This document shows positions 2,536 through 44,708 of a stretch of 64,000 bases of DNA, in pieces; positions within the stretch are counted from its first letter, which is position 1; each line of letters begins with the position of its first letter. The DNA is from a bacterium (GTDB lineage Bacteria > Gemmatimonadota > Glassbacteria > GWA2-58-10): assembly GCA_021372515.1 (NCBI GenBank), contig JAJFUG010000180.1:64240-128239 (forward strand), given 5' to 3'. A program made the position numbers and the translations under genes. The notes below the pieces were generated by a model. It did no database searches. It was not told where the DNA came from and worked only from the letters and a program-made list of their open reading frames with translations.

Positions 2536-3318
2536 GTGCGCGCCAGGAAATCCGGTGAGGATGAGCAGTTCGAGGAGCTGACAACCACGGCCCTGTACGT
2601 GCCGGCGGAGAATATCAGTGACGGCTGGCTGGAGTTCCCGGACGAGGAATTGCACCATCTGACCCACGTGCTGCGCCAGGGAGCGGGCAGCCGGGTCCAG
2701 GTGCTGGACGGCTGCGGTGGGGTTTGGTCCGTGCTCGTGGAGCGCCGCGAGGGCCGTCTGGCCGGACGGGTGCTGGAGCACGAGCAGGCCACCGCGCCCG
2801 TACCGGCGATAAGCGTGGCCCTGGCCCCCGGACGCAAGGAACGTCTGCGCTGGGCCGTGGAGAAGCTGGCTGAGCTGGGGGCGGCGCGGATAATCCCGCT
2901 TCTCAGCGCTCAGGTCTCGTTCCCCGGCGACCCCGGCCGTCTGCCCGAGCGCCTTCAGCCGGTCTGCGTGGCCGCGCTCAAGCAGTCGCGGCAGCCGTTC
3001 CTGACCCGGGTCGAGCCGCCGCTGGGTTTCGCAGATTTTATGAAAACATGCACTGCAGCAGAGGTGCAGGCGGTATTCTGCCATAAAAAAACTCAAACCC
3101 GCGCCCCGATAGGCCGAAATAGATTAGGGGGAGCGCGTGAGTTGGTTCTGGTGGTGGGGCCGGAGGGTGGCTTCGACAGCGCCGAGAGCGGGTCGATCCT
3201 GTCCAGCGGCTTGCCCTGCCTGGATTTGGGTCTGTCCACATTGCGTTTCGAGACCGCGGCGCTGGCCGGATTCGTTCTGCTGCGGCAGATGTTGCGTGGC
3301 GATCAGGGGTTGTACTGA
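2536..3318 (+). CDS. rsmE: 16S rRNA (uracil1498-N3)-methyltransferase RsmE
   Basis: RsmE-like PUA and SPOUT regions (ISVALAPGRKERLRWAVEKLAELGAARIIPL). Position after dnaJ matches B. subtilis dnaJ-prmA-rsmE synteny. GTG start uncertain. Confidence 0.75.
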   Translation: MRARKSGEDEQFEELTTTALYVPAENISDGWLEFPDEELHHLTHVLRQGAGSRVQVLDGCGGVWSVLVERREGRLAGRVLEHEQATAPVPAISVALAPGRKERLRWAVEKLAELGAARIIPLLSAQVSFPGDPGRLPERLQPVCVAALKQSRQPFLTRVEPPLGFADFMKTCTAAEVQAVFCHKKTQTRAPIGRNRLGGARELVLVVGPEGGFDSAESGSILSSGLPCLDLGLSTLRFETAALAGFVLLRQMLRGDQGLY

Positions 3319-3444
3319 AAGCCGCACCGTTATATGTTTGAATTGAATGTTAGGCCCATACAACAGTTAAACCCTGAACCAGATCGGTCCGGGAAAGCGC
3401 CGGGCCGCCGCCGGGGCGGCTGAAACCGGTTGAGGAGTTCGACC

Positions 3445-4710
3445 ATGCAGGAGAGGGACATCAATGGCATTCTGCAAAAAGTCGAGGAGCTGAAATCAGT
3501 TTTCTCGTTCGGGGTCAGGTTCCTGCCGTTCCTGGAGGACCTGCTTGTGTTCGTCCAGGAAATGGCCCCCATGCTGAACGAGATGAACCAGTCCATCCAG
3601 GACAGCTCCAGTAAGATGCCCAAAGCCGTTCAGCAGCTCGATAAGGTGACAAGCGCCACGGAGCTGGCCACGAACGAGATTTTGGACAAGGTCGATTCCA
3701 TGCTCGGCCGTCTGGACCAGGTGACCACCAATTTCAATGTTGTACGCGAACGCCTGTCCGCCGAACAAACCGCGCTTAGCGGGATCGCCGGGGCGATCGA
3801 GGAGCTTCTGGAGCTGCCCGGGGTGCGCGAGGGCCTCAACCGGGTGTTCGAGGACGAGAAAGCGCGCCAGAAGGGCGTCGAGATCAAGAAGATCGTCGAT
3901 GAGTTCCTGTCCGGCAAGATCGGCGAGGATGTGCCGCAGTCAGTCGAGAACCTGCTGCAGGACACACAGACCGACGCCTACGACATAATGAACGCCCTGC
4001 AGGTGCAGGATATCACCGCCCAGCAGATCGAGGGCGCCCACGGCCTGCTGCGTTCGGTCCAGGAACGGCTGAACATGCTCATCACCAAGTACTCGGAGGC
4101 CGAGCCGCCGGCGATTTTCCGCGAGGCCAAGGCCCATGACATCAACGCCATCTTCGACATGGACGATGACCGTCAGAAGGCCGTGGACGAGGTGCTCGGC
4201 CAGAGCCCGGAAAACCTTCTGGCCGAGAGTGAACCCGCCCCGGCCGAGGCGTCGGATGAAAGCGATCTGCCCGCCTCCAGCGCTTTCGATGAAAGCCTGC
4301 CTGAGGCGGTCGAGGCCGAAGCCGAGGCCGAGGTAGCGGGTGAGGAGCCGAACCAGGCCGAGATCGACGAGTTGCTGAGCTGGGGCGATGGCGGCGCCAA
4401 CGCCGCGCTGCCCGGTGAGGAAACGGCCGCGCTGGATGAGCAGGCCGCCGATGAAATGTCCGCGGAGGACCTGCTGGCCGGGGCCGACTTGACGGCCGTG
4501 GAGCCGGAGCAGGTCGAGGAACCGCTGCTGGAGGAGGTCATCCCGGCCGATTCCGGCAACGGGAAGCTTGAAGAAGTGGTCGTGGAGGAGCCGGAGGTTC
4601 CCAAAGCGAAAAAGGGACAGGGAAAAAATGAAAAGCCGGCCAAGGAGAAGGAAGACGGCGCGGCAAGCATAAAAATCTCCCAGGAAGAGATCGACAAGCT
4701 GTTTTCGTAG
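3445..4710 (+). CDS. CheZ-like CheY-P phosphatase homolog with a long acidic C-terminal tail
   Basis: [35 protein letters not shown] aligns with the E. coli CheZ active-site segment [28 protein letters not shown], conserving D and Q at +4. The C-terminus [10 protein letters not shown] and an internal copy [11 protein letters not shown] resemble the CheZ CheY-binding peptide DQVDDLLDSLGF. ATG at 3445 with a gagga RBS; the track ORF starts at a TTG at 3430. Confidence 0.7.
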
Positions 4711-4743: not shown

Positions 4744-4772
4744 TTGACTTTATTAGCAACGCCAATTATTTT
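4744..4772 (+). promoter_or_regulatory. Putative sigma70-type promoter for rpsU (TTGACT-17-TATTTT)
   Basis: TTGACT at 4744-4749, a 17-nt spacer and TATTTT at 4767-4772, about 50 nt upstream of the rpsU start. Confidence 0.35.
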
Positions 4773-4823: not shown

Positions 4824-5015
4824 GTGCCGGAAGTATATATCGATGAAGGCGAGTCCTTTGAAAAGGCCTTGAAAAAATTCAAGAAGAAATGCGAAAAGGC
4901 CGGAATCCTCTCCGATTTGCGCAAGCACCGTCATTTTGAGAAACCCAGCGAGAAGCGTAAGCGCAAGATGAACGCCGCCAAGAGGAAACTCAAGAAGGAG
5001 GCGCGTCACCGTTAG
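4824..5015 (+). CDS. rpsU: 30S ribosomal protein S21
   Basis: [63 protein letters not shown] has the S21 signature. GTG start at 4824 with a gggagg RBS 7 nt upstream. The track ORF from 4710 is an upstream in-frame extension. Confidence 0.85.
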
Positions 5016-5127: not shown

Positions 5128-5150
5128 GGCGCCCGGCGGCGCTTTTTTTA
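5128..5150 (+). terminator. Intrinsic terminator after rpsU
   Basis: GC hairpin gcgcc-cggc-ggcgc (5129-5142) followed by a 7-T run (5143-5149). Confidence 0.5.
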
Positions 5151-11814: not shown

Positions 11815-11891
<77 letters not shown>

Positions 11892-11903
11892 TATTGAATC
11901 AAT

Positions 11904-11979
11904 GGGCGATTGGCTCAGCGGCTAGAGCGTCCGGTTCACATCCGGAAGATCACTGGTTCAAATCCAGTATCGCCCACCA
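11904..11979 (+). tRNA. tRNA-Val (CAC anticodon)
   Basis: Acceptor GGGCGAT/ATCGCCC, anticodon stem tccgg/ccgga with loop ttCACat, T-arm actgg-ttcaaat-ccagt, encoded CCA. Confidence 0.75.
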
Positions 11980-12058
11980 TTTTGAAAACAACCGTTCTTA
12001 TGGAACATTCAAAATACACTGTCGACGTGTCATATTCTTCCGGGGCTTGGTGCAATGG

Positions 12059-12092
12059 AAGTGTACTGTCCGAGGACGGTACACTTTTTTGT
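12059..12092 (+). terminator. Intrinsic terminator after the tRNA pair
   Basis: gtgtactgtc-cgag-gacggtacac (10-bp stem with one G-U pair) followed by ttttttgttt. Confidence 0.7.
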
Positions 12093-12168
12093 TTCTGAGG
12101 GTTTCATAAGATATGGCGGGGCGGGGAAAGCAGCGCAAGGGTCCATCACGACGTTCAGGAGGGGGAGG

Positions 12169-12888
12169 ATGGAAGAACCACTGGAACTCCTGTTGAGGCT
12201 CCAGGAGATCGATGTCGAGATCAACGAAATCCAGGGCCGCAGGTCGACGATCCCGGCGCAGATTGAGGCGCTGGAACACGAAATGGATTCGGCCCGCCAG
12301 GAACTTGTCGACAAGGAATCCCAGTTGAAAGCGGCCCGTCTCGTCATCCGCGAGACCGAGGGCCGGGTGGCTCAGCTGGACGAGGGCTCAAACCGCTACA
12401 AGCAGCAGTTGCTCGCGGTCAAGAGCAACCGCGAGTACTCGGCCCTGCTGACAGAGATTGAGGCGATAAAGCGGGAGAAGGCGGAGCTGGAGGAGCGCAT
12501 CATCAGCCGCATGGAGCAGATCGAGCAGTTGAACCAGTCCCTCGATCAGTCCCGCGCCTCCCTGGCGGACCAGGAGAGCGGTCGCCGCGAGCAGTACGAC
12601 AGCCTCAAGGGCCAGATTCAGGACCTGGACGAGCAGATCGCCATCCGCCGTCAGAAGCGCGAGGGCCTGTCGGTGCGGGTCAAGCCGCGTCTGCTCGTTC
12701 TGTACGAACGGATCATGGGCTCGCGGGTAAACCAGGCGGTGGTAGCCCTGCGCAACGGAAGTTGCGGCGGGTGCCACGCGATGATCCCGCTCCAGCAGGT
12801 GAACGATATCCGCAAGGGCCGGGACATCCACACCTGCGAAAACTGCGGGCGGATACTGTATTACGAAGAAAACGGCAACGGGGCCTGA
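12169..12888 (+). CDS. COG1579/DUF164-type coiled-coil zinc-ribbon protein
   Basis: Long coiled coil followed by a C-terminal CGGCHAMIPLQQ...HTCENCGRILYY zinc ribbon. ATG at 12169 preceded by ggggagg. The track ORF from 12055 runs across the tRNA terminator. Confidence 0.7.
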   Translation: MEEPLELLLRLQEIDVEINEIQGRRSTIPAQIEALEHEMDSARQELVDKESQLKAARLVIRETEGRVAQLDEGSNRYKQQLLAVKSNREYSALLTEIEAIKREKAELEERIISRMEQIEQLNQSLDQSRASLADQESGRREQYDSLKGQIQDLDEQIAIRRQKREGLSVRVKPRLLVLYERIMGSRVNQAVVALRNGSCGGCHAMIPLQQVNDIRKGRDIHTCENCGRILYYEENGNGA

Positions 12889-12913: not shown

Positions 12914-13287
12914 GGGAGCGAAGCGGACAGCCGCGGTCGGCTCACCGCAAGGCCGGCCGAGGAAAGTCCGGACTCCGCAGAGCAGGATGCTGGATAACGT
13001 CCAGGCAGGGTGACCTGACGGAAAGTGCCACAGAAAACATACCGCCCCGCACCCTCGGGTCGGGGTAAGGGTGAAAAGGTGCGGTAAGAGCGCACCGCTC
13101 GTCCGGTGACGGACGGGGCAGGGTAAACCCCATCCGGAGCAAGACCGAATAGGGGAGGAGAGGCGGCTCGTCTCGCTCGACTCCCGGGTAGGTTGCATCA
13201 GAGCGGCGGGAGCAATCCCCCGCCAAGATGAATGGCTGTCGCCCCGCTCTCGGGCGGGGTACAGAATCCGGCTTATGCTTCGCTCCC
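12914..13287 (+). ncRNA. rnpB: RNase P RNA, bacterial type A
   Basis: Universal motifs GAGGAAAGTCCGGACTC, GGAAAGTGCCACAGAAA, GGTAAGAGCGCACC, GGGTAAACCCCATCCGGAGCAA and ACAGAATCCGGCTTAT. P1 helix gggagcgaagc (12914-12924) pairs with gcttcgctccc (13277-13287). Confidence 0.9.
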
Positions 13288-13336
13288 GTAAATTTTTCAG
13301 CAGCACCCGATAATTCTCAGCCAGGGTGGAAGAGCG

Positions 13337-16242: not shown

Positions 16243-16281
16243 AAATGGGCTGTTTGAGGCCCACTGACCGCGGAGCCGATT

Positions 16282-16746
16282 ATGGAGCTGGAGGAACAAC
16301 TGGCCGAGGCCTGCGCGCCAGCCCTGGCCGCGGCAGGCCTGGAGCTGGTGCTGGTCGAGGTGGCCGGCCTGCCGCGCCGCCGCACCGTCCGGCTGTATAT
16401 AGACAAGCCGGAGGGGGTGGACGTGGAGGACTGCGCCCGCGCCAGCCGTCTGGTCGATCCGCTGATCGAGGCCGCGGGGGTCTTGACTGTCTCCTGGGTC
16501 CTGGAGGTCTCCTCACCGGGCCTGGAGCGTCCCCTGGTCAAGGCCGCCGATTACGAGCGCTTTACAGGCCGCAAGGCCCGGCTCAAGCTGAAACGCCCGT
16601 TGCTGGAGAACCGCCGGAACCTGACCGGCACACTGCTCGGGCTGGATGGGCAGGGACGGGCGCGCGTGCAGTTGGAGGGCTCAGAGGAAGTCCAGGTGGA
16701 GCTGGAGAATGTCGCCCGCGCCAACCTGATCTACGAGTGGAAATAA
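16282..16746 (+). CDS. rimP: Ribosome maturation factor RimP
   Basis: 154-aa RimP-like sequence (LVLVEVAGLPRRRTVRLYIDKPEGVDVEDCARASRLV) directly preceding nusA. Confidence 0.85.
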   Translation: MELEEQLAEACAPALAAAGLELVLVEVAGLPRRRTVRLYIDKPEGVDVEDCARASRLVDPLIEAAGVLTVSWVLEVSSPGLERPLVKAADYERFTGRKARLKLKRPLLENRRNLTGTLLGLDGQGRARVQLEGSEEVQVELENVARANLIYEWK

Positions 16747-16832
16747 CGACATGTCCGCCGGGCGAGCCATCCTCCCCGCCCGGTGGTCGAGGCTGTCAAT
16801 CCATACAACAGGCTGCAAACGGAGCTGTCAAA

Positions 16833-18629
16833 ATGATTAATCCGATTCTGGATGCCTTCGGCGAGATCGCGCGTGAAAAGAGTATCAGCCAGATCGAGCT
16901 GATCGAGATGATCGAGGCCGGGCTGGTGGCCGCGGTGCGCAAGCGCTACGGTGCGAACTGCGAGGTGAAAGTCCAGATCGAGCCCCGCGAGGGTCGGATC
17001 CGGATCCAGGTGGGACGCCACGTGGTGGAGACGGTCGAGGACACTACGGCCCAGGTCGCTCTGGAGGAGGCACAGCGGATTGACCCCAAGATCGCCCTGG
17101 AGGGAATCCTCTGGAACGAGGTGCCGTTCTCCGATTTCGGCCGCAACGCGATCCAGGCCGCCAAGCAGGTGGTGATCCAGCGCATCCGCGAGGCCGAGCG
17201 CGACAAGATCCGCTCCGAGTACTCGGGCAAGATCGGCGAGCTGCTCTCGGGCACGATCCAGCAGGTGGAGCGGGGCAACTATGTTGTGTTCCTGAACCGG
17301 CAGACCGAGGCGATCATGCCGATGAAGGAGACCAACCGCAAGGACCATTTCAAGCAGGGCGATCCGGTGCGCGCCTGCCTGATCGATATCCGCGAGACCA
17401 CCAAGGGTCCGCAGCTCATCCTGAGCCGCACTCATGAGTCGTTCCTCAAGGCCCTGTTCCAGTTGGAGGTGCCCGAGATATACCAGGGCATCATCGACAT
17501 CCGGGGCGTGGTGCGCGAGGCGGGCAGCCGGGCCAAGATCGCGGTCTACTCGCACGATGACCACATCGACGCCGTGGGGGCCTGCGTGGGCCTCAAGGGC
17601 AGCCGGGTCCAGGCCGTGGTCAACGAGCTGGGCGGCGAACGGATCGACATCATCCCGTTCAGCGACGAGCCGCAGGAGTACGTGCGCGCCGCGCTCAATC
17701 CGGCCAAGATCTACCGCACCTCGATCAACCGCGAGGACGGCCAGGTGAACGTGGTAATCGAGGATGACCAGCTCTCCCTGGCGATCGGCAAGAACGGCCA
17801 GAACGTGCGCCTGGCCTCCAAGCTCACCGGCTGGAAGATCGAGTTGATGACCAAGAAGGATTTCATGGCCCAGCGCGATGAGGGCCTGGCCGGTATCTTC
17901 GGGCCCAAGAAGCCCGCGTCGGATGAGTCTGCCGCCGGCGAGGGGTCGGAGAAGGAGCCGGTCGCGGTGGAACCGTCGCGGCCCGAGATCAAGCTGGCGG
18001 ACCTGTTTGCGCCCAAGGCGCCCGCGGCCAAGGCGCAGGAGCCCAAGGCGCCCGCGGCCAAAGCGCCGGAGCCCAAGGCGCCCGTGGCCAAAGCGCCGGA
18101 GCCCAAGGCGCCCATGGCCAAAGCGCCGGAGCCTGAGGAAGAGGCGCCGGAGGAGGAGTCCGTTCCGGCCGTGGCGGCCGCCGCAGCCGTGCCGGAGCAG
18201 GAGCCTGAGGGCGCGGGTCCGGAGGAGGGACCGGCCGTGGAGCAGGAGGAGCCGGTTGCCGAGGCGTCGCCTGCGGCGACTGAGGAGCCGGGGGCCGTGG
18301 AAGAGGCGGGTGAAGAGGCCGGGTTGGAAACCGGGGAAGAGGAGTATGAGAGCGGTCCGCGGCGCGATCTGGAAAAGCTCGGTCCGGAGCAGCAGGAGTT
18401 GATCGATAACCTGCCGGTGGAGGATTTCCCGCTCAACCTGATCGAGGCGATCTCGGGCAACGTCCGCGAGAAGCTGGAGGAGGCCGGTTACGACAGTTTC
18501 TACCAGCTCGTGCTGGCCGACCTGGAGGAGCTGTCTGGAGTGAAGGGGATCGGACGCAAGACAGCGACAAGAGTGAAGGAAATTGTGGATTATCTGGTTG
18601 AGCATTATTCCGAGGAGGAAGAAGACTGA
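16833..18629 (+). CDS. nusA: Transcription termination/antitermination factor NusA (with C-terminal acidic repeat domains and a Pro/Ala/Lys-rich repeat insertion)
   Basis: MINPILDAFGEIAREKSISQIELIE N-terminal domain, S1 domain, KH1/KH2 (GACVGLKGSRVQAV, LAIGKNGQNVRLASKLTGWKIEL) and a C-terminal HhH AR domain. ATG at 16833. The track ORF from 16245 is an in-frame upstream extension through rimP. Confidence 0.95.
   Translation: MINPILDAFGEIAREKSISQIELIEMIEAGLVAAVRKRYGANCEVKVQIEPREGRIRIQVGRHVVETVEDTTAQVALEEAQRIDPKIALEGILWNEVPFSDFGRNAIQAAKQVVIQRIREAERDKIRSEYSGKIGELLSGTIQQVERGNYVVFLNRQTEAIMPMKETNRKDHFKQGDPVRACLIDIRETTKGPQLILSRTHESFLKALFQLEVPEIYQGIIDIRGVVREAGSRAKIAVYSHDDHIDAVGACVGLKGSRVQAVVNELGGERIDIIPFSDEPQEYVRAALNPAKIYRTSINREDGQVNVVIEDDQLSLAIGKNGQNVRLASKLTGWKIELMTKKDFMAQRDEGLAGIFGPKKPASDESAAGEGSEKEPVAVEPSRPEIKLADLFAPKAPAAKAQEPKAPAAKAPEPKAPVAKAPEPKAPMAKAPEPEEEAPEEESVPAVAAAAAVPEQEPEGAGPEEGPAVEQEEPVAEASPAATEEPGAVEEAGEEAGLETGEEEYESGPRRDLEKLGPEQQELIDNLPVEDFPLNLIEAISGNVREKLEEAGYDSFYQLVLADLEELSGVKGIGRKTATRVKEIVDYLVEHYSEEEED
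18011..18130 (+). repeat. 4 x 30-nt perfect or near-perfect tandem repeat inside nusA, encoding PKAPAAKAQE, PKAPAAKAPE, PKAPVAKAPE and PKAPMAKAPE
   Basis: Unit gcccaaggcgcccgcggccaaRgcgcMgga repeated four times in tandem, with 1-3 substitutions per copy. Confidence 0.9.
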
Positions 18630-34821: not shown

Positions 34822-36027
34822 TCACTCGTAGCGCAGGGCCTCGATCGGGTCGAGACGCGCGGCCTTGACCGCCGGGAAATAGCCGAACCCCACGCCCACC
34901 GCGGTGGAAAACAGGAAGGCGATCAGGACTATACCCACGTTGACGATGAACGGCACGTTAAGGATGAACGACAGCCAGAGCGAGGCGCTCAGGGCCAGTA
35001 CAATGCCAACTATGCCGCCGAACGAGGACAGCACGGCCGACTCCACCAGGAACTGCACCAGCACCTCGTGCTCCAGGGCGCCTATCGCCAGACGGATGCC
35101 GATCTCGCGGGTGCGCTCGGTCACCGAGACCAGCATGATGTTCATGATCCCGATGCCGCCGACCAGCAGGCTGACCGCCGCCACCGCGCTCAGCAGGGCG
35201 GTGAGGATCTGCGTGGTTCCAGCGAGCATGTTGGCGATCTCCTTGGTGTCCATCACGCTGAAATTGTCGTCCTCGCTGGCCGCCAGGTGACGGCGCTCCC
35301 GGATCAGGGCCCGGATGTCCTGCTGGGCCTTTTCGGTCGAGGCGCCATCCTGCACCGAGACCTGGAACAGGGAGACATTCTGGTTGCCCGAGATACGCCG
35401 CTGGAAAGTGCGCAGTGGGATGATCACGATATCGTCCTGATCCATACCCATCGTATTCTGGCCCTTGGTGGCCAGGACCCCGACCACCGTGCAGGTCAGC
35501 TTTTCCAGACGGATGTTCTCGCCAATCGGGTCCTGCGAGCCGAACAGCTCCTTGACGATGCTGGAGCCAATGATGCAGACCGCCGCCCCGGCGCGCATCT
35601 CGCTGTCCGAGAACTGACGGCCGCTCTGGATGCTGCGGTTCGAGGTCTTGAGGTACTGGTTTTCGGTCCCGGTCACGGTGGTGGACCAGTTCTCGTTGCC
35701 GTAGACCACCTGAAGGCTGCGCGAGGCTATGGGCGCCACGGCCGCGATCGAGCTGACGCCGGTCAGGATGGCCTGGCCATCGGCCACCTTGAACGGTATG
35801 CTCTCGGAGGACTGGCCGGGGCCGAGACGCTTGCCGGGGCTGATCATCAGAAGGTTGCTGCCCATGCTTGAAATCTGTTGCCGCACCTGGGCCGTGGCCC
35901 CCTCGCCGATAGTCACCATGGTAATAACAGCCGCCACACCGATAACTATGCCCAGGATGGTCAGGACCGAGCGCATGACATTACGCCTGATTTCGCGCAG
36001 GGCGAGCAGAATAGCGTTCCAGAACAT
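34822..36027 (-). CDS. ABC transporter permease, MacB/FtsX family (4 TM segments plus a large periplasmic domain)
   Basis: 401 aa with an N-terminal TM, a periplasmic MacB_PCD-like domain and a C-terminal FtsX domain (GIGIMNIMLVSVTERTREIGIRLAIGA). Confidence 0.85.
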   Translation of the reverse strand: MFWNAILLALREIRRNVMRSVLTILGIVIGVAAVITMVTIGEGATAQVRQQISSMGSNLLMISPGKRLGPGQSSESIPFKVADGQAILTGVSSIAAVAPIASRSLQVVYGNENWSTTVTGTENQYLKTSNRSIQSGRQFSDSEMRAGAAVCIIGSSIVKELFGSQDPIGENIRLEKLTCTVVGVLATKGQNTMGMDQDDIVIIPLRTFQRRISGNQNVSLFQVSVQDGASTEKAQQDIRALIRERRHLAASEDDNFSVMDTKEIANMLAGTTQILTALLSAVAAVSLLVGGIGIMNIMLVSVTERTREIGIRLAIGALEHEVLVQFLVESAVLSSFGGIVGIVLALSASLWLSFILNVPFIVNVGIVLIAFLFSTAVGVGFGYFPAVKAARLDPIEALRYE

Positions 36028-36758
36028 TATGCCGCCCTCCCGTTGCCGTTGTCCGACTCGACCAGGCCGTCCAGAAAGTGGACCACGCGCTTGGCGTAGG
36101 ACGCCATGTCCGGCTCGTGGGTGACCATGACCACCGTGATCCCACGGTCACGGTTGAGGCCGGTGAGCAGGTCCATGATCTCCCTGGCCCGGGCCGTATC
36201 CAAGTTGCCGGTTGGCTCATCCGCGAAAAGCACCGCGGGATTGGTCACGATGGCGCGGGCCACCGCCACCCGCTGCTGCTGGCCCCCCGACAGCTCGGAC
36301 GGGGTGTGGGTCATCCACTCACGGAGGCCCACCACATCCAGGGCCTGAAGCGCCTGCTTGCGCCGTTCGGCCGCGGGAAGGCCGCGGTAAAGCAGCGGCA
36401 GCTCCACGTTCTCCAGGGCCGAGGTGCGGCTCAGCAGGTTGAAACCCTGGAAGACAAAGCCCAGGTAGAAACGGCGCAGCCGCGTGCGCTGGGTGCGCGA
36501 CAGTCTTTCCACCGGGACGCCCTTGAAACGGTATGTCCCAGCGGTGGGCGTGTCCAGGCAGCCCAGGATGTTCATGCAGGTGGACTTGCCCGAGCCGCTG
36601 GGTCCCATCACGGCGACGAACTCGCCTGTCTCTATCCGCAGGTCTATTCCGCGCAGGGCCGCCATCTCGGCCTGACCGCTGCCGTAGACCTTGGTCACGC
36701 CCTGCAGCTCGATCAGGGGCTGAGTGTCTGTTGTATGTTCTGCGGCCGGCATGTTCAT
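36027..36758 (-). CDS. ABC transporter ATP-binding protein (MacB/LolD-type ATPase)
   Basis: Walker A GPSGSGKST, Q-loop, signature LSGGQQQRVAVARA and Walker B LFADEPTGNLD. Confidence 0.9.
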   Translation of the reverse strand: MNMPAAEHTTDTQPLIELQGVTKVYGSGQAEMAALRGIDLRIETGEFVAVMGPSGSGKSTCMNILGCLDTPTAGTYRFKGVPVERLSRTQRTRLRRFYLGFVFQGFNLLSRTSALENVELPLLYRGLPAAERRKQALQALDVVGLREWMTHTPSELSGGQQQRVAVARAIVTNPAVLFADEPTGNLDTARAREIMDLLTGLNRDRGITVVMVTHEPDMASYAKRVVHFLDGLVESDNGNGRAA

Positions 36759-38038
36759 TTCTCCTGGCTGATTATATCGGTCACGACCGCTGCGCCGGGC
36801 TCGATCTCGCCGCTGGTTATCTCGGTCCGGCTCCCGTCAGTCGAGCCGACAGTGACCGTCACCGCGGTGAGCTTGCCGTTATTCAGCACCCAGACATGCT
36901 GCTGCTTGCTGTCGCCATTGGCATGGTTGCCGGTCTGCGACATGGGCGGGTGCGGCAGAATCGAACTGACCAGGCTGCCGGAACGTTTTTTCTTGACCGC
37001 CTGGACCGGCGGAGAGAAACGCAGCGCGGCGCTCGGCACCAGCAGCGCGTTCTCCACTTTCTGCACCGTGATATCGGCGGTGGCGGTCATTCCCGGCCGC
37101 AGGGCCAGGTCGGAGTTGTCCACTTTCAGCACGGTCTCGTAGGTCACCACCCCGGAGGTGGTGGAGGAGCCGAAATGCGCCTCGGTAATCACCGCCTTGA
37201 AATTCCGGTTGGGGTAGGCGGCCACGTTGAATTCGGCCTCCTGGCCCTCGTGCACCTTGCCGATGTCGGCCTCGTCCACGTCCACGTGCAGCTCCATCTG
37301 AGTCAGGTCCTCGGCCAGGGTGAACAGCACGGCCACCTGGAACGAGGCGGCCACGGTCTGGCCCGGCTCCACGTTGCGGCCGAGCACCACGCCGTTGACC
37401 GGCGAGCGGATTATAGTCTTGGACAGGTCGGTCAGGTTGGCGCTGAGCGTGGCCTGGGCCTGGAACACCGACGCGTTGGCGCTGGCCAGATCGGCCTTGG
37501 CCCGCTCGTAGTCCGCCTCGGCGGCATCATACTCGGTCTGTGAGGGCACCTTGTTGTCGCTCAGCTCCCGGACTTTTTTCATCTGGTCGAGCTTGGCCTG
37601 TGTCTGCATGAGCGTGGCCTTGGCCTCCAGCACCTTGGCCCTGGCCGACTCGAGCGCGGCCCTCGACTGCATCACCTGGGCCGAAATCTTGGTGGTGTCC
37701 AGGTGCGCCAGTGGCTGGCCCACCGTGACCTTGTCATTGAAATCCACCTCGACACTCTTGACTATGCCCGACAGCTCGCTGCCCACCTCGACCTCGTTGG
37801 TCGGCTGCAGAGTACCGGTGGCGGTGACAATCACTGTCAGGTCGCCGCGGGTGGCCTCCTGTGTCTTGTACTGGACCTGCTCGGCATGGCCCATCATTTT
37901 CCAGACCAGGATCACGGCCAGCACCACCGCCGCGAGGACCACCACCTGCCACTTGCGCGAACCTTTCCTGCGCCCCGCGGGCTGATCGAGTTCCAGGAGC
38001 CTGGATATCTCGGAATCGGGATTGATCTTCGTGCTCAT
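36755..38038 (-). CDS. HlyD/MacA-family periplasmic adaptor subunit
   Basis: N-terminal TM, long coiled-coil hairpin, then lipoyl and beta-barrel regions. Overlaps neighbouring genes by 4 nt. Confidence 0.85.
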   Translation of the reverse strand: MSTKINPDSEISRLLELDQPAGRRKGSRKWQVVVLAAVVLAVILVWKMMGHAEQVQYKTQEATRGDLTVIVTATGTLQPTNEVEVGSELSGIVKSVEVDFNDKVTVGQPLAHLDTTKISAQVMQSRAALESARAKVLEAKATLMQTQAKLDQMKKVRELSDNKVPSQTEYDAAEADYERAKADLASANASVFQAQATLSANLTDLSKTIIRSPVNGVVLGRNVEPGQTVAASFQVAVLFTLAEDLTQMELHVDVDEADIGKVHEGQEAEFNVAAYPNRNFKAVITEAHFGSSTTSGVVTYETVLKVDNSDLALRPGMTATADITVQKVENALLVPSAALRFSPPVQAVKKKRSGSLVSSILPHPPMSQTGNHANGDSKQQHVWVLNNGKLTAVTVTVGSTDGSRTEITSGEIEPGAAVVTDIISQEK

Positions 38039-39543
38039 CAGTTCTTTTCCGTGTTAGAGAGTCCACTTGTCTCGGGGGCCAGGGAAGTCCAGCCGCCGCC
38101 CAGGGCCTTGTACAGGCTGATCAGGTCCGAGGTCACCGCCCCATCGCTCTGCGCCAGCTGGTCCTGGAACGACAGGAGCGAGCGCTGGGCCTCCAGGATG
38201 CTGCTGAAATCGGTCAGTCCGGCCTCGTATTCCTGACGGGCCAGGTCGGCGGCTTTGCCAGCCGCCGCAGCCGCCGCGCTCAGCGACTGACGGCGTTTCT
38301 GCTCCTTGGCGTAGGCGGTCAGGGCGTTCTCCACCTCCTCCACCGCACCCAGCACCGAGGATTCGTAGGCGGCCAGGTACTGCTCCTGGAGCGCCGACTG
38401 CACCTGGATGTTCTTACGGATCGAGCCGCCGCGGAATATGGGCCAGCTTATCAGGGAACTGCCGCTCGCGGCCCGGCTGCCGGAGGTGAAAAGGTTGTCC
38501 AGGCTGAGGGCCTCCAGCCCGATGGAGCCGCTCAGGGAGAGCTTGGGGTAGAGGTCCGCCTTGGCCACGCCCACCCGCGCGGTCTGGGCGGCGAGCTGAC
38601 GTTCGGCGTGGCGGATGTCCGGACGGCGGCGCAGCATGTCGGCCGGTATCCCGACCGCCACGCTGAGCGGTGTGACCGGGATAGTCCCGCGTTGCTCCAG
38701 CTCAGAGTGCAGGGCGCCGGGCTGCTCGCCCAGAAGGACCGCCAGGCGGTTCAGCGCCCCCTCCAGGCCGGTCTGCAGCGTGGGTATCTGCGAGCGGGTG
38801 CTCTCCAGGTTGTAGCGGGCCTGCTCCACGGCCAGCTCATCGCTCAGACCGGCCTGGGCGCGCCACCGGGCGAGCTGGTAAGTCTCGCTCTGCGCGGCCA
38901 GGTTCTGCTCGGCCACGCTCAAACGGGTCTGATAGGTGCGCAGCTCGGTGTAATTGAGCGCCACCTCGGCGACGAGGGAGACCAGGACATCGTGAAGGTC
39001 CTCCTGGCTGGCCTGGAGGTCGGCCGTAGAGGCCTCGACCGAGCGCCGTGTCCCGCCGAAAAGGTCCAGCTCCCAGCCCGCGTCGAAACCGGCCTGGAAC
39101 ATGTTGCGCGTGGCCCCGCCGCCGGTTTTCTTGCTGCTCTGGCTGCGCGAGGCCGAACCGCTGGCATCCAGCGTGGGGAGCAGGCTGGCCTGGGAGGCGC
39201 CCCGGCGGGCGCGGGCCTCCCGCACGCGGGCCTCGGCCTGACGCAGGTCGCGGTTGCCCTTGACCGCGCGCTCGACCAGTCCGCTAAGCTCCGGGTCGCC
39301 CAGCGCGTTCCACCACTGCGCCAGGGCCTGCGGGTCGGCTTCTCCGAAAGCCAGGCTGCTGTCCGGACCGCTGTGCCACTGCGCGGAGACCGTGTCGGTG
39401 GGGCGGACATACTTCGGCCCCACAGCGGCGCAACCGGTCAGCAGAACGGCCGCCAGAAAGGCTGTCAGTCCGGATGCCGTCCTGAGGACATATCCTTCGC
39501 TTGTGTCTGTCATATTTCCTATCCCTTTGTTCATGTTTACCAC
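38038..39543 (-). CDS. TolC/NodT-family outer-membrane efflux protein (lipoprotein-like N-terminus)
   Basis: Signal followed by LLTGC AAV (lipobox-like), and two OEP repeats with coiled coils. Confidence 0.85.
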   Translation of the reverse strand: MVNMNKGIGNMTDTSEGYVLRTASGLTAFLAAVLLTGCAAVGPKYVRPTDTVSAQWHSGPDSSLAFGEADPQALAQWWNALGDPELSGLVERAVKGNRDLRQAEARVREARARRGASQASLLPTLDASGSASRSQSSKKTGGGATRNMFQAGFDAGWELDLFGGTRRSVEASTADLQASQEDLHDVLVSLVAEVALNYTELRTYQTRLSVAEQNLAAQSETYQLARWRAQAGLSDELAVEQARYNLESTRSQIPTLQTGLEGALNRLAVLLGEQPGALHSELEQRGTIPVTPLSVAVGIPADMLRRRPDIRHAERQLAAQTARVGVAKADLYPKLSLSGSIGLEALSLDNLFTSGSRAASGSSLISWPIFRGGSIRKNIQVQSALQEQYLAAYESSVLGAVEEVENALTAYAKEQKRRQSLSAAAAAAGKAADLARQEYEAGLTDFSSILEAQRSLLSFQDQLAQSDGAVTSDLISLYKALGGGWTSLAPETSGLSNTEKN

Positions 39544-39557
39544 CCCATCTTTCTGCT

Positions 39558-40217
39558 CTATGACACCACCCGGTTCGATTCGGTTTCAGCCCGGATCGCC
39601 TTCATACCGGCCAGCGAGAACGCTATCACGTGCCTGGCATAGGCTTCAATATTTTCTATCCGCAAGGGGATATCCTTGTCTTCTCTGCCTGCGGGCCGGT
39701 TCAGTCTGGCGATCGGACCGATGCACTGACTGATCACGCTGGCCGCGCAGAACCGGACCTGCATATCGGGCACCAGCGGGCCGACCAGATCGCGGATCAG
39801 GATCAGCAGATTCTGCCGCAGCGGCTCGAGGGCTTTCCTCATCACCTCAACCAGCAGTCCGGTGGGGTTGGCCAGCTCTTTCTGCACGATCAGAAACTCC
39901 ATGTTGTCCCGGTCGGCAATGCGGGCCAGAAGGGAGGTGACCACCCCCCGGAACCGCTCCTCGGGCGGCGCCCCGGAGCTCACACCCCCATCGGGGGGAA
40001 AGCGCGTGATGGATTGATGGAAACTGTGCCGCCACGTTTCGACATACAGGTTTTCCTTGTTCCCGAAATGGTAATTCACCGCCGCGACATTCGCTCCCGC
40101 TCGCCGGCAGATTTCGGCAATCGTGGCATTCCGGTAGCCGTTTTCCGCAAACACCTGGCTGGCTGCGGCGAGCAGTTCCTCGCGTGTTTTGTTGTGGCCT
40201 TTCCTATTGCGATCCAT
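39558..40217 (-). CDS. TetR/AcrR-family transcriptional regulator, first gene of the efflux operon
   Basis: HTH TREELLAAASQVFAENGYRNATIAEICRRAGANVAAVNYHFGNKENLY. ATG at 40217; the track ORF extends to a TTG at 40292. Confidence 0.85.
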   Translation of the reverse strand: MDRNRKGHNKTREELLAAASQVFAENGYRNATIAEICRRAGANVAAVNYHFGNKENLYVETWRHSFHQSITRFPPDGGVSSGAPPEERFRGVVTSLLARIADRDNMEFLIVQKELANPTGLLVEVMRKALEPLRQNLLILIRDLVGPLVPDMQVRFCAASVISQCIGPIARLNRPAGREDKDIPLRIENIEAYARHVIAFSLAGMKAIRAETESNRVVS

Positions 40218-40264
40218 CGATTTCTCCGTCTGTTTGGGGGGCTGTTTCCTGTAATCAAATATAA

Positions 40265-40288
40265 ATTTAAAATAAACATTTAAAATAA
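40265..40288 (+). promoter_or_regulatory. AT-rich direct repeat (ATTTAAAATAA x 2, 13-nt period) upstream of tetR; candidate operator or promoter
   Basis: Copies at 40265-40275 and 40278-40288, each containing the palindromic TTTAAA, inside a sharply AT-rich stretch. Confidence 0.3.
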
Positions 40289-40759
40289 TCAATAGGAAAT
40301 GATGGGCCCGGAAAGAGAGACTTATCCTTTCATTACGGCGATCACCTCGCGGGCCACGATCGAGCGGACGATCAGCACCACGGCGCGCCGCCCACGAAAG
40401 AATGCGAGGAAAAGTGTCGCGGCCATGCGATGGATTACGAGGACGGTTCTCCAGTCATGGTCAAGCTGGGAGCGGACCGCAGTTGCAGGCGGGCTGGAGC
40501 GATGACTCCGGACATCGCAGGTGACGATGGTAGAGGTGAAGGGGGAAGTCCTTGGAGGATAATATCTAAGGCTCAGATCTCTGGCTGGCTGTGGCTGGCT
40601 GTTCGGAAGAGTCGCTGAGGTGGCAAGGATTGAGCTTTTTGTTTCACAATCTGCAATGAAAACAGATTGACGTTTGTGTCCTGTGAAATGAGAATAATGG
40701 ATGTTTGCTACCGCGTGACGAATAGCATGCACCACAGCCATGAAATCTCACAGAAAGAG

Positions 40760-41152
40760 ATGGAGATGGAACAAAATAAAACCATACTTCTCGCGGATGA
40801 CAACGTCCAGATACTGCGAATGCTGAACAGTTTTTTTAGGCGAGCAGGTTATAGATGCAAATTATGCACATGCGGGGAGGAAGCCGCCAATATCCTAAGA
40901 AATGACAGGGACATAGGTCTGGTTCTAACCGACCACAAAATGCCCGGGAACGAAGCGCTGCAGATGGTGAAAGAGATAAGGATAAAGTATCCGGATATAA
41001 AAATAGTCGTGATGTCAGGAAATTATTCAGATGATACACTCTTGGAATTGAAAGGAATAGGCGTCAGAAAGTATTTGCAGAAACCTTTGGAATTGAGGCA
41101 ATTGCAGATGACAATACAGGAAGAGCTGTTCAGTTCAATGGCAGGTGAATGA
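40760..41152 (+). CDS. Single-domain CheY-like response regulator (receiver only)
   Basis: Receiver residues are all present: LLADDN acidic pair, the phospho-acceptor D in LVLTDHKMPG, S in VVMSG and K in YLQKPL. No output domain. Low GC. Confidence 0.8.
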   Translation: MEMEQNKTILLADDNVQILRMLNSFFRRAGYRCKLCTCGEEAANILRNDRDIGLVLTDHKMPGNEALQMVKEIRIKYPDIKIVVMSGNYSDDTLLELKGIGVRKYLQKPLELRQLQMTIQEELFSSMAGE

Positions 41153-44100
41153 GGAAGGAAACATTGCGTTCGCCATCGAAATTGTGCTTCATGAAACCTC
41201 CAATCGATTCAAGCAGTGTTCTCGCCGTAGAAAACCCTATCCCGACTCCCCGGAGAGTACCCTCAAGATTCGGTTGCATTGTGAACGAAGACTCAATGCT
41301 ACTCCTTATCCGAGCTTGCTCCACTATCGAGTTAAGGCTGTCGATACGGATGATGACGAGATTGCCCTTTTCACTGGCAGTGACCGTGATTAAACCGCCA
41401 CGGCTTACCGGGATGAGCTGCTCCAGGCAATTGTGAACAATCTGCTTGATTACGGATACTTTGGCCGGGGCAACGGAAATATCAGTGTTGATATCGAAAA
41501 CCATTTCGATGTTTCTGGCTTTCAGCTGCTTTTCAAACATCCGGGTGACTTGTTTTAAAATATCGGCTATCGAGCCTGGAGTGGCGTGCGTTCGGCCGTA
41601 CAGCTCGTAAAGATGCGAGAGTGTTTGCGAAATGTGATTGATTTCTGAATTCAAGAGTTGCAGATACACGTAGTCCGGATTTTCGGGCGTAAAGCTTTTA
41701 CCGATAATGTAGAGGGAGTTTTTAATCGTTGAAAGTGGGTCGCTCAGAGTCTGGGCGATTTCAGAGGCGATCCTTCCAGTCAACGCTATTTTATTGATAC
41801 TCAAATTTTCAAGAAGAAGCTCTCTGCGGTGTAGATAGTCGGAAAGCAGGCCGCTTATTTCATCCAGATGATTCTGGTCGAAAGGCATATCCCAGGTGGC
41901 AGAAGTGGAAAAAACCGTGATGGAGCCTTTCACAACGCCTGTGATGACAATTTTACTGGATATGTATCCACTATCCGAAACCTGATTGTTTTCGGGATAG
42001 GATTTTCCATCATAGAAGATGACCACCAGCCTTTCTTGCGGATCGGCATAGGAGTCTTTAATGATAAACGCCACGTTGTTAAGAATATCCGATAAGTTGG
42101 CTCCCTTCTCAAATTCTGCTCTTATCTGGTTCCGGCAGGAGAGCTGCTTTACCTGTTTCTTCAAATCTTTTTCGGATTTCTGAAGTTCAGCCGTTCTTTC
42201 CTTGACCGTCAGCTCAAGCATTTTTTGGGATTTATATACTTCCTCCTCGGCTTTCCTACGGTCGCTGATATCGGTGATGAAACCCTCTACAGCCACAGGT
42301 TGTCCATCTTCTCCATAGACACAACTGCCCTTTTCCAGAACCCATTTATCAGGGCCGTTGAGTGTAACGATTCTATAATTCAGTTCAAACGGTCTTCTTG
42401 AGGCGACCGCTATTTCCAGATTGCTTTTCAGAATGCGGTAATCTTCTGCAGTTACGAGTGTGCACCTCGATTTGCCGACCAACTCCGATACAGTGTAACC
42501 GGTAAGTTCCCGGCAGCCCTCGCTGGCGAAAGTAAAGATGCAATCTTTCCCATCCATTACGCAACGATAGACCATGCCGGGAAGATTACCCAGCAGGGCG
42601 GTCATGGCTCTACGGCTTTCGTCCAACTCTTCAGCGATTTTCTTGCGTGCCGTAATATCCCTCGAGGTCCCATAGATGAAAATCGCAGAATTATCGGGTT
42701 CGACATAAAAAGAAAAAGTGAAGCTAACCCATATGATATCGCCGGATTTGCTAATACAACGGCATTCTCTGCGTTTTTCGTTTTTCGGGAGGTCTTTGTA
42801 TTCCCAGGGATTATTCAACAGCTTGATAAGCTGTTGTCTGTCATCCGGGTGAACGATTTCGAGGATGAGGCCGTTTCTGGCATAATACTCATCCCGCGAG
42901 TAGCCGAAGAACGTCTCTATAGCAGGGCTTAGGTAATTGATTTTGACTTCAGGATACACTTGGAATTTGTAAATAATGTCGAGAGATTCTTCGACAAGAC
43001 TTTTGAACTTGTTTTCGCTTTGCTCCAGGGCCAGAATGTGCCTTTTTATTGAAAGGGCATTGCTGACAATGTCGGTAAGGGTGGATACTGTTATTCGCAG
43101 TTCTTGCATCCATTCCTTATTCTCTGCCATGGAATGGATCCCAAGGAGGCCAACGATTCTTTCGGATGAGACAACCGGAGCGATCAGTAAAGACTTGGTG
43201 CCAATTGTATTGAAATGCTTGCGGGCTTTTTTATTCTTCGAGGCAAGGGATTGATCGGGAAAGAAAGTAAAGGCACCGGCCTTTTGGGATATTTCTTTTT
43301 TCCCCGGAAACTGATCCGAAACAAACTTTCTGATAAGGTCTGTCTGGGGACTCAAACCTTCCCTGCACCAGTAATTAGCCAATACTATATTATTTCCGTC
43401 CTGGTCGTATAACGAAAGATGAACCCTGTCCGCCTCAGCCAGGTTGCCGATAAATCCGAGAATTTTGTCTATTTCAAGATCGATGCTTTGAGGATCGGCG
43501 ATGATGATATTTCTGGAAAACGCACTGATCTGATTCTCCAGCCTTAATCTTGCCTCGAGTTCCTTCCTCAAGGATGTCTCACTTGTAACATCTTGAAAAA
43601 TCAGGGTGTGCACCGACTCGCCCAGCGAGACATCCGTGCCCATGTGCACCCTGAAAACCCGTCCGTCCGGCTTGTCTTCCTTCAGGCCCGTCTCGATATC
43701 CAGCGGGAATTGAAACTGCCGGATATCGTACTGCGATTTCCGGGTGAAAACCTTCACCTCATAGATGCAGGCTTCTCCTGAGAACGTCGTGAATCCAAAA
43801 TAGGGACGCCGGTCGTAGCAGGCGTTGATATCCGTCGATTCGATGCCGGTCAGATGTTTTCCGGACGACAGTTCACGAATGCTTCTTTTTAATTTACCGC
43901 CGATTCGCGAAGCCGTTATTTCATACTCGGTCCCTGGCTCCAGGATTTCCATGGTGCTGGCCAGGTTGGCGCCCTGCCTCTGGATGCGGGCTTCGAGATT
44001 GTAGTTGGAGGCGGTGCAGAAAGCATAGCCGGTAAGGTCACAGAGGGGGTGCTCCCGGCCGGAGTAGCCTGAAATAACAAGGGAAAGGTCTCGTATCAAG

Positions 44101-44708
44101 TCTGGATTGAGACTGGTTTTTATTCGGAAAGTTATCCGGATGTCCTCATCCGGACGGCAGAGCGGTTCTTCGTACATCAGGTAGCAATTGAGCGAATCAG
44201 AGACATGCGGGTGATGGAATATGATCCATTTCCCATCCTGTTCCTTTATTTGCCAGTGGTCGCCGCAGGCATGGTGGCAGAACCAGTTGACTCCGATCTT
44301 GTCTTGCTCCGAGGGGCCTGTGTAAACCGGGTTCCAGCCGCTTTCCTCGTCCGCATTCAAGGAGCAGATGTCTTTCATCTTCTCCAGATGCTTTTTTATC
44401 CGAGAATACCCTTCCTCATCCAGCAGTTCTTTCAAATGGGCTCTGTCATGAGCCAGTTGAGGCAGTCTCTCTGAAAGCAATGGGAAATTACTTGAAAAGC
44501 CGATAATCGAGAATCGGTCGTCAAGATAGACCTCCGGGATTTCAGCAAAGGCGCGGATGGTGAAAGCCGAGCGGCCAAACTTGTCCCTTTCACCGATTTC
44601 GAAGGCGTATCTGTCCCGCATCTGTTTTAGCAATAAAGCGGGAACCTCTCCCCTGCAACTCACAGCACCACCCCGGAAGTTTGAAGAATTAGTTATAATA
44701 ATTTCCAA
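41130..44708 (-). CDS. Large cytoplasmic multi-domain sensor: novel Cys/His-rich N-terminal domain, GAF, two PAS, a coiled coil, and a HisKA/HATPase_c-like C-terminus with apparently degenerate H-box and G1 box
   Basis: 1192 aa with no TM segments. PAS-like SRDITARKKIAEEL...GMVYRCVMDGKDCIFTFASEGCRELTGYT. H-box region reads IASEIAQTLSDPL, with Ser where the phospho-His is expected. ATPase region has an N-box (IVHNCLEQL) and G2 (GVGIGFS), but the G1 DxGxG is replaced by IDSLNS. Overlaps the 3' end of the receiver gene by 23 nt. Confidence 0.7.
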   Translation of the reverse strand: MEIIITNSSNFRGGAVSCRGEVPALLLKQMRDRYAFEIGERDKFGRSAFTIRAFAEIPEVYLDDRFSIIGFSSNFPLLSERLPQLAHDRAHLKELLDEEGYSRIKKHLEKMKDICSLNADEESGWNPVYTGPSEQDKIGVNWFCHHACGDHWQIKEQDGKWIIFHHPHVSDSLNCYLMYEEPLCRPDEDIRITFRIKTSLNPDLIRDLSLVISGYSGREHPLCDLTGYAFCTASNYNLEARIQRQGANLASTMEILEPGTEYEITASRIGGKLKRSIRELSSGKHLTGIESTDINACYDRRPYFGFTTFSGEACIYEVKVFTRKSQYDIRQFQFPLDIETGLKEDKPDGRVFRVHMGTDVSLGESVHTLIFQDVTSETSLRKELEARLRLENQISAFSRNIIIADPQSIDLEIDKILGFIGNLAEADRVHLSLYDQDGNNIVLANYWCREGLSPQTDLIRKFVSDQFPGKKEISQKAGAFTFFPDQSLASKNKKARKHFNTIGTKSLLIAPVVSSERIVGLLGIHSMAENKEWMQELRITVSTLTDIVSNALSIKRHILALEQSENKFKSLVEESLDIIYKFQVYPEVKINYLSPAIETFFGYSRDEYYARNGLILEIVHPDDRQQLIKLLNNPWEYKDLPKNEKRRECRCISKSGDIIWVSFTFSFYVEPDNSAIFIYGTSRDITARKKIAEELDESRRAMTALLGNLPGMVYRCVMDGKDCIFTFASEGCRELTGYTVSELVGKSRCTLVTAEDYRILKSNLEIAVASRRPFELNYRIVTLNGPDKWVLEKGSCVYGEDGQPVAVEGFITDISDRRKAEEEVYKSQKMLELTVKERTAELQKSEKDLKKQVKQLSCRNQIRAEFEKGANLSDILNNVAFIIKDSYADPQERLVVIFYDGKSYPENNQVSDSGYISSKIVITGVVKGSITVFSTSATWDMPFDQNHLDEISGLLSDYLHRRELLLENLSINKIALTGRIASEIAQTLSDPLSTIKNSLYIIGKSFTPENPDYVYLQLLNSEINHISQTLSHLYELYGRTHATPGSIADILKQVTRMFEKQLKARNIEMVFDINTDISVAPAKVSVIKQIVHNCLEQLIPVSRGGLITVTASEKGNLVIIRIDSLNSIVEQARIRSSIESSFTMQPNLEGTLRGVGIGFSTARTLLESIGGFMKHNFDGERNVSFLIHLPLN

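Follow-up and report, generated by a model that had tools for sequence, protein, structure and literature searches.

A divergent CheZ homologue with EIDAL-type peptides on a long acidic tail, encoded away from chemotaxis genes in Glassbacteria

The paradigm for CheZ, the phosphatase acting on phosphorylated CheY (CheY-P), is the Escherichia coli enzyme, for which a structure has been described (PDB 1KMI; Zhao et al. 2002, as cited in PMC10542144). Divergent CheZ proteins that annotation had missed, HP0170 of Helicobacter pylori and Cj0700 of Campylobacter jejuni, are working CheY-P phosphatases (10.1101/2023.01.06.523011). Within the Fibrobacterota-Chlorobiota-Bacteroidota (FCB) superphylum, CheZ has been annotated in the che/fla gene clusters of Ignavibacterium album (PMC3362086) and Roseithermus (PMC7409140). 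CheY-P is also bound by the flagellar switch proteins FliM and FliY, where the EIDAL motif at the N-terminus is its published docking site (PMC6946799, PMC9126983). Here we describe a gene from a bacterium of the class Glassbacteria (Gemmatimonadota), located at positions 3445..4710 on the forward (+) strand of a 64,000-nucleotide stretch of contig JAJFUG010000180.1 (GenBank assembly GCA_021372515.1); this whole stretch is referred to as the window. The encoded protein of 421 amino acids is likely to be a divergent, FCB-type CheZ-family CheY-phosphate phosphatase, most probably engaged in ordinary dephosphorylation of CheY-P while being genetically unlinked and multivalent. It is an unusual variant of a known enzyme family, not a new kind of system.

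The assignment to the CheZ family draws on family-level evidence and not on a strict profile pass by the protein itself. Its top Pfam match was CheZ (PF04344), with an E-value of 1.5e-5 over residues 47-105. A search of 5.8 billion proteins yielded 390 relatives, an exhaustive HMMER scan gave 465 clusters at 50% identity (E ≤ 1e-3), and a genome scan placed relatives in at least 509 GTDB species. These belong to Glassbacteria (Gemmatimonadota), KSB1, Kryptonia, Kapaibacteria, Ignavibacteria, Calditrichota and Rhodothermales, all in the FCB superphylum, and many of them already carry the name CheZ from JGI or NCBI. The view that CheZ is classically proteobacterial, which was adopted in an earlier note made from the DNA sequence alone, is therefore outdated where genome annotation is concerned. 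Pfam CheZ was matched at E ≤ 1e-3 by 29 of 31 sampled family members, and two short proteins of the operon type described below, P0100 and P0110, exceeded the Pfam gathering score with 37.1 and 35.4 bits over model positions 23-197 of 203. The window protein is tied to relatives that include these two threshold-passing proteins at 30-40% identity, with E-values of 1e-25 to 1e-37. The best PDB match of the family profile was again CheZ (1KMI_Z), and the E-value of 3e-4 indicates that the sequence similarity to the E. coli enzyme is remote.

Like E. coli CheZ, the window protein has a predicted helical hairpin with an Asp-x3-Gln pair on its second long helix, in register with that of the E. coli enzyme, and it continues with a flexible linker that leads to an amphipathic C-terminal peptide of the type [SN]Qxx[IV]DxL[LF]. 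The linker of E. coli CheZ comprises about 30 residues. In the window protein the corresponding tail, of about 193 residues, is several times longer, and an extra conserved segment of about 45 residues is present at the N-terminus. Furthermore, two intact docking-type peptides, a proximal motif and a relic are found in place of a single peptide, and the gene is not adjacent to cheY or cheA.

The hairpin (bundle) domain was assigned to residues 1-217 (3445..4095, +) from the AlphaFold2 model, conservation and the Pfam match. The model, computed for the monomer, has helices at residues 3-55, 58-123, 127-158 and 162-217 with confidence scores (predicted local distance difference test, pLDDT) of about 75-87. 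Residues 1-45 form the conserved N-terminal segment, which is specific to the FCB type and includes F20, G23, P28, F36 and P42. A conserved motif on the first hairpin helix (residues 71-81; 3655..3687, +) aligns with approximately residues 61-71 of E. coli CheZ. The active-site helix motif covers residues 185-195 (3997..4029, +) and contains D189 (nucleotides 4009-4011) and Q193 (4021-4023). When the family profile was searched against 1KMI_Z with hmmsearch, D189 and Q193 fell in the columns of E. coli D143 and Q147, with QDITsQ placed on QDLTGQ, and hhalign reproduced this register. The QDxxxQ pattern occurs in 248 of the 258 collected homologues. In a 31-sequence alignment L185, Q186, Q188, D189, I190, T191, Q193 and Q194 are invariant, which gives the motif LQVQDITxQQI. 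Conservation in the Glassbacteria clade points to purifying selection, with 67-92% identity retained in the N-terminal segment, the catalytic helix and the C-terminal peptide, compared with 18-38% in the tail. The earlier note had recognized the active-site helix, which lies at residues 184-195, and had described the protein as CheZ-like; both statements were borne out.

The gene context of the relatives points in the same direction. Neighboring genes and che/fli homologues were located by tblastn in 87 fetched loci, and Pfam-annotated neighborhoods were read as well. About 72 loci outside Glassbacteria, from KSB1, Kryptonia, Kapaibacteria, Ignavibacteria, Calditrichota and Rhodothermales, share the operon-type order (cheW)-HEAT protein-cheR-cheY1-cheY2-cheZ-cheA-cheB, often continued by fliF-fliG-fliI. 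The cheZ gene thus follows directly on two cheY genes and precedes cheA-cheB, and CheY2 from these operons shares 55% identity with E. coli CheY. On independent grounds, this operon setting identifies the family as chemotaxis CheZ, and the published annotations for I. album and Roseithermus agree with it. Two further properties of the FCB che operons were observed: the cheY genes ahead of cheZ occur as a tandem pair, and a conserved HEAT-repeat protein of about 460 amino acids is encoded between cheW or a methyl-accepting chemotaxis protein gene and cheR in approximately 65 loci (for example L086, 6919-8325).

The FCB operon-type proteins, which include those of I. album and Roseithermus sacchariphilus as well as P0100, P0110, P0120 and P0030, belong to the same subfamily as the window protein, with 30-40% identity and E-values down to 1e-37. 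They share with it the invariant LQVQDITxQQI and ATELATxEILD motifs, the N-terminal segment, the proximal RQxxxDE motif and a terminal SQ[DE][DE]IDxLF peptide, often in several copies. In contrast to the window gene, theirs are found in the order cheR-cheY-cheY-cheZ-cheA-cheB beside flagellar genes (PMC3362086, PMC7409140). They are also shorter, with a median length of 300 amino acids and a tail of about 90 residues containing 21% Asp and Glu (D/E), whereas the Glassbacteria proteins have about 420 amino acids and a tail of about 198 residues with 30% D/E. Location and tail length are the only respects in which the Glassbacteria CheZ differs from its FCB relatives.

In the window protein the tail (residues 218-410, about 193 amino acids; 4096..4674, +) was recognized as an acidic, predicted-disordered tether by its composition, the AlphaFold2 model and low conservation. 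The tether contains 28% D/E and 7% K/R and has a net charge of -42. The earlier note had described an acidic linker with about 35% D/E; the linker and its acidity stand, but a value of this size (36%) was reached only in the best 50-residue window. The only helices predicted in the disordered tail, at residues 241-252, 304-315 and 413-420, coincide with three peptide motifs. The first of these is the proximal peptide-like motif RQKAVDEVL (residues 243-251; 4171..4197, +). The RQxxxDE pattern is common to all family members, with Q244 and D248 invariant, and HMMER places the C-terminal peptide of E. coli CheZ on it. The second is an internal EIDAL-type peptide at residues 303-314 (4351..4386, +), and the third the C-terminal EIDAL-type peptide at residues 411-421 (4675..4707, +), which is near-invariant in the clade. 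Their strict cores, QAEIDELL (residues 304-311) and QEEIDKLF (residues 413-420), match the pattern [SN]Q.EID.L[LF]. A degenerate EIDAL-type relic, SSAFDESL, was found at residues 278-285 (4276..4299, +; alignment columns 380-400). The equivalent copy is intact in P0010, P0011, P0013 and P0018 (for example SQAEIDSLF and QEQIDALF), and more distant members of the Glassbacteria clade have three peptide copies, of which the first has decayed to SSAFDESL in the subclade of the window.

The presence of both CheY-docking-type peptides had been proposed in the earlier note, and their conservation supports it. The internal and C-terminal peptides are kept within the clade although the tail around them is only 18-38% identical, which is far beyond chance. 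This is the pattern expected of a disordered linker that carries conserved short linear motifs. Recent DNA duplication was considered as the origin of the two peptides and rejected, as the two regions share just 22 nt at 82% identity over the motif codons and no tandem repeat was found. An LPXTG surface-protein repeat match from a single-sequence PDB search was short, lay in the hairpin-tip region and was dismissed as spurious.

Multiple peptides are not restricted to this protein. Peptides of the type SQ[DE][DE]ID[KA]L[FL] occur in variable number in the C-terminal region across the family, and in a set of 246 family proteins strict copies numbered one in 107, two in 70, three in 19 and four to six in 7; at least two copies were thus present in 96. 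From none to six strict EIDAL-type peptides (QDDIDA[LM]F and similar) were seen in the FCB-type CheZ proteins, spaced about 15-40 residues apart in the tail. This variation is illustrated by P0187, P0200, P0221, P0170 and P0172, and by the loci L073 and L070. Peptide duplication is therefore a trait of the family and is not peculiar to the window gene. The tails of the orphan-type proteins from Glassbacteria and of the operon-type proteins have median lengths of 198 and 90 residues and D/E fractions of 0.30 and 0.21, respectively, with the orphan type falling inside the family range. We know of no characterized CheZ with more than one docking peptide. In a limited literature search no published description of multi-EIDAL CheZ tails or of the relocation in Glassbacteria was found.

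The peptides also resemble the docking motif of the flagellar switch. Both NQAEIDELL and SQEEIDKLF in the tail fit the EIDAL(L) motif of FliM and FliY, and the FliM protein encoded in one Rhodothermales locus of the FCB group (L042) starts with MAKPLNQDEIDILL, which includes NQDEIDILL. Unlike in FliM and FliY, where the motif occurs once at the N-terminus of a switch protein, it is present here in at least two copies in the C-terminal tail of a putative phosphatase, and the window protein is without a FliM or SpoA domain.

The window gene lies between rsmE (2536..3318, +) and rpsU, which encodes ribosomal protein S21 (4824..5015, +), in agreement with the earlier note. The rsmE gene belongs to a block, hrcA-dnaJ-rsmE, whose synteny is kept throughout the Glassbacteria-clade loci, and rpsU has its own Shine-Dalgarno sequence (GGGAGG) and is followed by mutS2-dnaG-rpoD. 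This orphan arrangement, hrcA-dnaJ-rsmE-cheZ-rpsU-mutS2-dnaG-rpoD with the CT398-like gene and recJ further downstream, was found in the window and in loci L002-L006, L010, L082, L088 and L089. All loci of the Glassbacteria clade, of which at least eight are independent, share it even where protein identity falls to 44%, so the apparently orphaned position is a conserved, clade-wide relocation. In a rough neighbor-joining tree of the N-terminal domains the orphan clade was monophyletic in 23 of 30 bootstraps and nested among operon-type proteins, beside two Calditrichota-like loci, which suggests a single relocation in the ancestor of Glassbacteria. The only deviation seen in the synteny is a flavodoxin-like gene (11952-12563) between rpsU and mutS2 in L088, a GWA2_58_10-type contig. 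In the metagenome-assembled genome (MAG) JAZDIG01 the CheZ-like gene is split over the end of one contig (L005) and the start of another (L010), which overlap in the acidic tail. These two were rejected as paralogues and most likely represent one gene with an assembly break in the repetitive, low-complexity tail.

By homology with E. coli CheZ, a mechanism can be proposed in which residues 1-217 form a long helical hairpin, two of which would associate as a four-helix bundle. From the second long helix, D189 and Q193 would then enter the active site of CheY-P and position the hydrolytic water. The EIDAL-type peptides of the tail would bind CheY-P at its alpha4-beta5-alpha5 face and keep it close to the catalytic bundle, and with two or three such docking sites along a tail of about 190 residues the enzyme would be multivalent and could gain in both capture rate and reach. 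The substrate would be the chemotaxis CheY of a flagellated host, which the protein is expected to bind and dephosphorylate by the same analogy. As for its history, the gene would have left a cheY-cheZ-cheA operon in the lineage ancestral to the Glassbacteria clade, which represents the class Glassbacteria of the Gemmatimonadota, and have become fixed between rsmE and rpsU, ahead of rpsU-(mutS2)-dnaG-rpoD, while the tail roughly doubled in length. A role of the Glassbacteria CheZ in chemotaxis is plausible since flagellins (PMC6248924, PMC7018530) and the flagellum-associated protein FlgV (PMC11607428) are recorded for Glassbacteria in published surveys.

Several observations weigh against the assignment of the window protein as a chemotaxis CheZ. 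A search with PF04344, which the earlier note had suggested as a check, returned CheZ as the top match for the protein and also recovered its relatives, but the protein itself did not reach the Pfam gathering score (25.5 vs 30.7 bits). The CheZ model of NCBIfam (NF008368) gave a score far under its cut-off (21.4 vs 257 bits). An hhalign comparison with the single E. coli CheZ sequence had an E-value of 0.0023 and a probability of just 12.5%. Foldseek searches of the PDB with the AlphaFold2 model found weak, generic coiled-coil matches with a best E-value of 0.47, and 1KMI_Z appeared at rank 13 with an E-value of 1; because of the long coiled coils this method is non-discriminating here. No cheY, cheA or flagellar gene was present among the approximately 45 genes of the 64-kb window, which upholds the earlier description of the gene as unlinked from che genes, and the loci of the Glassbacteria clade likewise had none within 10 kb. 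The gene content of the window is confined to housekeeping functions, glycosidases, efflux, the cell surface and the export of polysaccharides. Furthermore, the support from flagellin and FlgV comes from other Glassbacteria MAGs and the literature alone, and a limited literature search found no biochemical study of any FCB-type CheZ.

An alternative that we regard as doubtful is that the phosphatase has been repurposed in Glassbacteria and acts on non-chemotaxis single-domain receivers, being expressed together with housekeeping, heat-shock or macromolecular-synthesis genes so that two-component output is linked to growth state. This would fit the strict conservation of the rsmE-rpsU position in the independent clade loci, the more acidic tail of twice the operon-type length, and the lack of che genes nearby. 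The docking peptides, however, are still of the EIDAL type, which is the motif of FliM for CheY-P (PMC6946799). Moreover, an unlinked yet functional chemotaxis CheZ has a precedent in HP0170 and Cj0700, and Cj0700 did not dephosphorylate a non-chemotaxis regulator (10.1101/2023.01.06.523011). These two proteins form a separate, Campylobacterota-specific branch, unlike the window protein, to which they are likened by description and not by sequence. Their genes are also located outside the main che cluster.

A further point against repurposing concerns a receiver in the window. The stand-alone receiver encoded at 40760-41152 (+) in the window, which the earlier note had named as a CheY-like protein that might be a target, showed about 28% identity to the operon CheY1 and CheY2, and BLASTP gave no match between it and E. 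coli CheY. It deviates at the positions aligned with A90, A103 and V108 of E. coli CheY, which we take to be part of the peptide-binding face, and its gene is located beside that of a GAF-PAS protein. As a cognate substrate this receiver was rejected, and its description as CheY-like could not be maintained. The broader idea of a target outside a canonical che cluster received no positive support either; the EIDAL-type peptides point to a true CheY.

Related to repurposing is the proposal that a CheZ encoded in the hrcA-dnaJ-rsmE/rpsU-dnaG-rpoD block, with its expanded tether, serves as a constitutive multivalent phosphatase or sink for CheY-P (or another phosphorylated receiver), coupling motility or two-component output to growth or stress instead of being a stoichiometric part of the chemoreceptor pathway. 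We consider this speculative and improbable, to about the same degree as repurposing itself. An idea connected with it is that FCB CheZ proteins in general, whose chains bear as many as six EIDAL peptides, may capture CheY-P through avidity.

Still less probable is a mainly non-catalytic role, with the protein acting as a multivalent sink or scaffold for CheY-P, or as a competitor that mimics FliM, and with phosphatase activity being secondary or lost. Such a function would be in keeping with a long flexible tether that bears several EIDAL-type peptides (as many as six in relatives) and with the close resemblance of these peptides to the FliM N-terminus, but the catalytic Asp and Gln, together with the LQVQDITxQQI helix as a whole, do not vary across the family or within the orphan clade, and such invariance is difficult to account for unless the protein is catalytic. 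Moreover, sequestration does not preclude catalysis. A phosphatase of the CheC/CheX/FliY type was looked for as a CheC-like domain with the D/S-x3-E-x2-N-x22-P active site; no CheC-family match was found in Pfam or NCBIfam even at E ≤ 10, and the predicted fold is all-helical. That the protein is no CheZ at all but a generic coiled-coil protein with an acidic low-complexity tail and chance motif matches, as its sub-threshold Pfam score, the many weak coiled-coil family matches and the non-specific structural search could be read, is very improbable and effectively refuted by homologues (30-40% identity, E-values of 1e-25 to 1e-37) that pass Pfam CheZ and sit between cheY and cheA in about 72 loci, and by catalytic and docking motifs that are conserved across 258 sequences.

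If the window protein is indeed a CheZ-family phosphatase, the corresponding 'hypothetical' proteins of Glassbacteria can be named CheZ. Phosphatases of the CheZ type would then be widespread in the FCB superphylum, which matters for censuses that classify chemosensory systems by the presence or absence of a phosphatase. The family would also provide a natural series of CheZ proteins, whose tethers range from about 50 to 200 residues and bear as many as six EIDAL peptides, in which the effect of tether length and valency on CheY-P turnover can be tested. The clade-wide relocation beside rpsU-dnaG-rpoD is a clean example of how a signaling gene can be separated from its operon. These points leave the current understanding of chemotaxis intact.

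The gene call itself is secure. The open reading frame (ORF) at 3430..4710 (+) was confirmed in the window, and the CheZ-like ORF is a real and correctly located feature. The ATG at 3445 is the favored start, giving 421 amino acids plus a stop codon (3445..4710, +; P0001), because a Shine-Dalgarno-like sequence GAGGAG (3432..3437, +), read directly from the DNA, precedes it by 7 nt and the homologues begin with MQE[RK]DI, a start that all of them share in the alignment. The GC content at third codon positions is 0.81 and matches that of the neighboring genes. An identical protein is already public as 'hypothetical protein LLH00_16690 [bacterium]'. A structured RNA or leader between the CheZ-like gene and rpsU was considered and rejected, since there is no Rfam match in this region, only a weak promoter-like site ahead of rpsU (4744-4772). 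A terminator-like hairpin was found 3' of rpsU (5128-5143).

Downstream of the rpsU-mutS2-dnaG-rpoD genes, tRNA-Met(CAT) and tRNA-Val(CAC) follow rpoD and a bacterial class A RNase P RNA (303 bits) is located between the CT398-like gene and recJ (11815-11979 and 12915-13290, respectively, +). The CT398-like gene (12055-12888, +), which comes after rpoD and the two tRNAs, encodes a coiled-coil hairpin with a C4 zinc ribbon and is syntenic in all Glassbacteria-clade loci. Among relatives in the CT398 family, Chlamydia CT398 and H. pylori HP0958 are binding partners of RpoN and of components of flagellar or type III export.

Next to the stand-alone receiver gene, and convergent with and slightly overlapping it, a gene on the reverse strand (41133-44708, -) encodes the GAF-PAS protein of 1192 amino acids, in which no kinase or other output domain was recognizable at E ≤ 1e-3. 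A PAS-AraC regulator (45007-45723) follows this gene. Two putative surface proteins are encoded further on. One has 837 amino acids (46477-48990, +) and a C-terminal FlgD_ig/Por_Secre_tail domain of the type IX secretion system type; the other, a giant of 3107 amino acids (49027-58350, +), contains a cohesin-like domain besides about 20 Ig repeats of the He_PIG/Big_9/cadherin-like kind, and its C-terminal domain is of the type found in the first protein. The FlgD_ig match in both is a match to an Ig-fold sorting domain and does not indicate a flagellar gene. A MacB-type ABC efflux set (34822-40292, -) consists of a MacB_PCD/FtsX permease, an ABC ATPase, an HlyD-family adaptor, an OEP outer-membrane factor and a TetR/CecR-type regulator. 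Finally, the nusA ORF (16245-18629, +) encodes 794 amino acids, and the NusA N-terminal domain begins only at residue 201. The rimP gene is normally found upstream of nusA, and the additional residues could be an N-terminal extension, a fused upstream gene or the result of a mis-set start.

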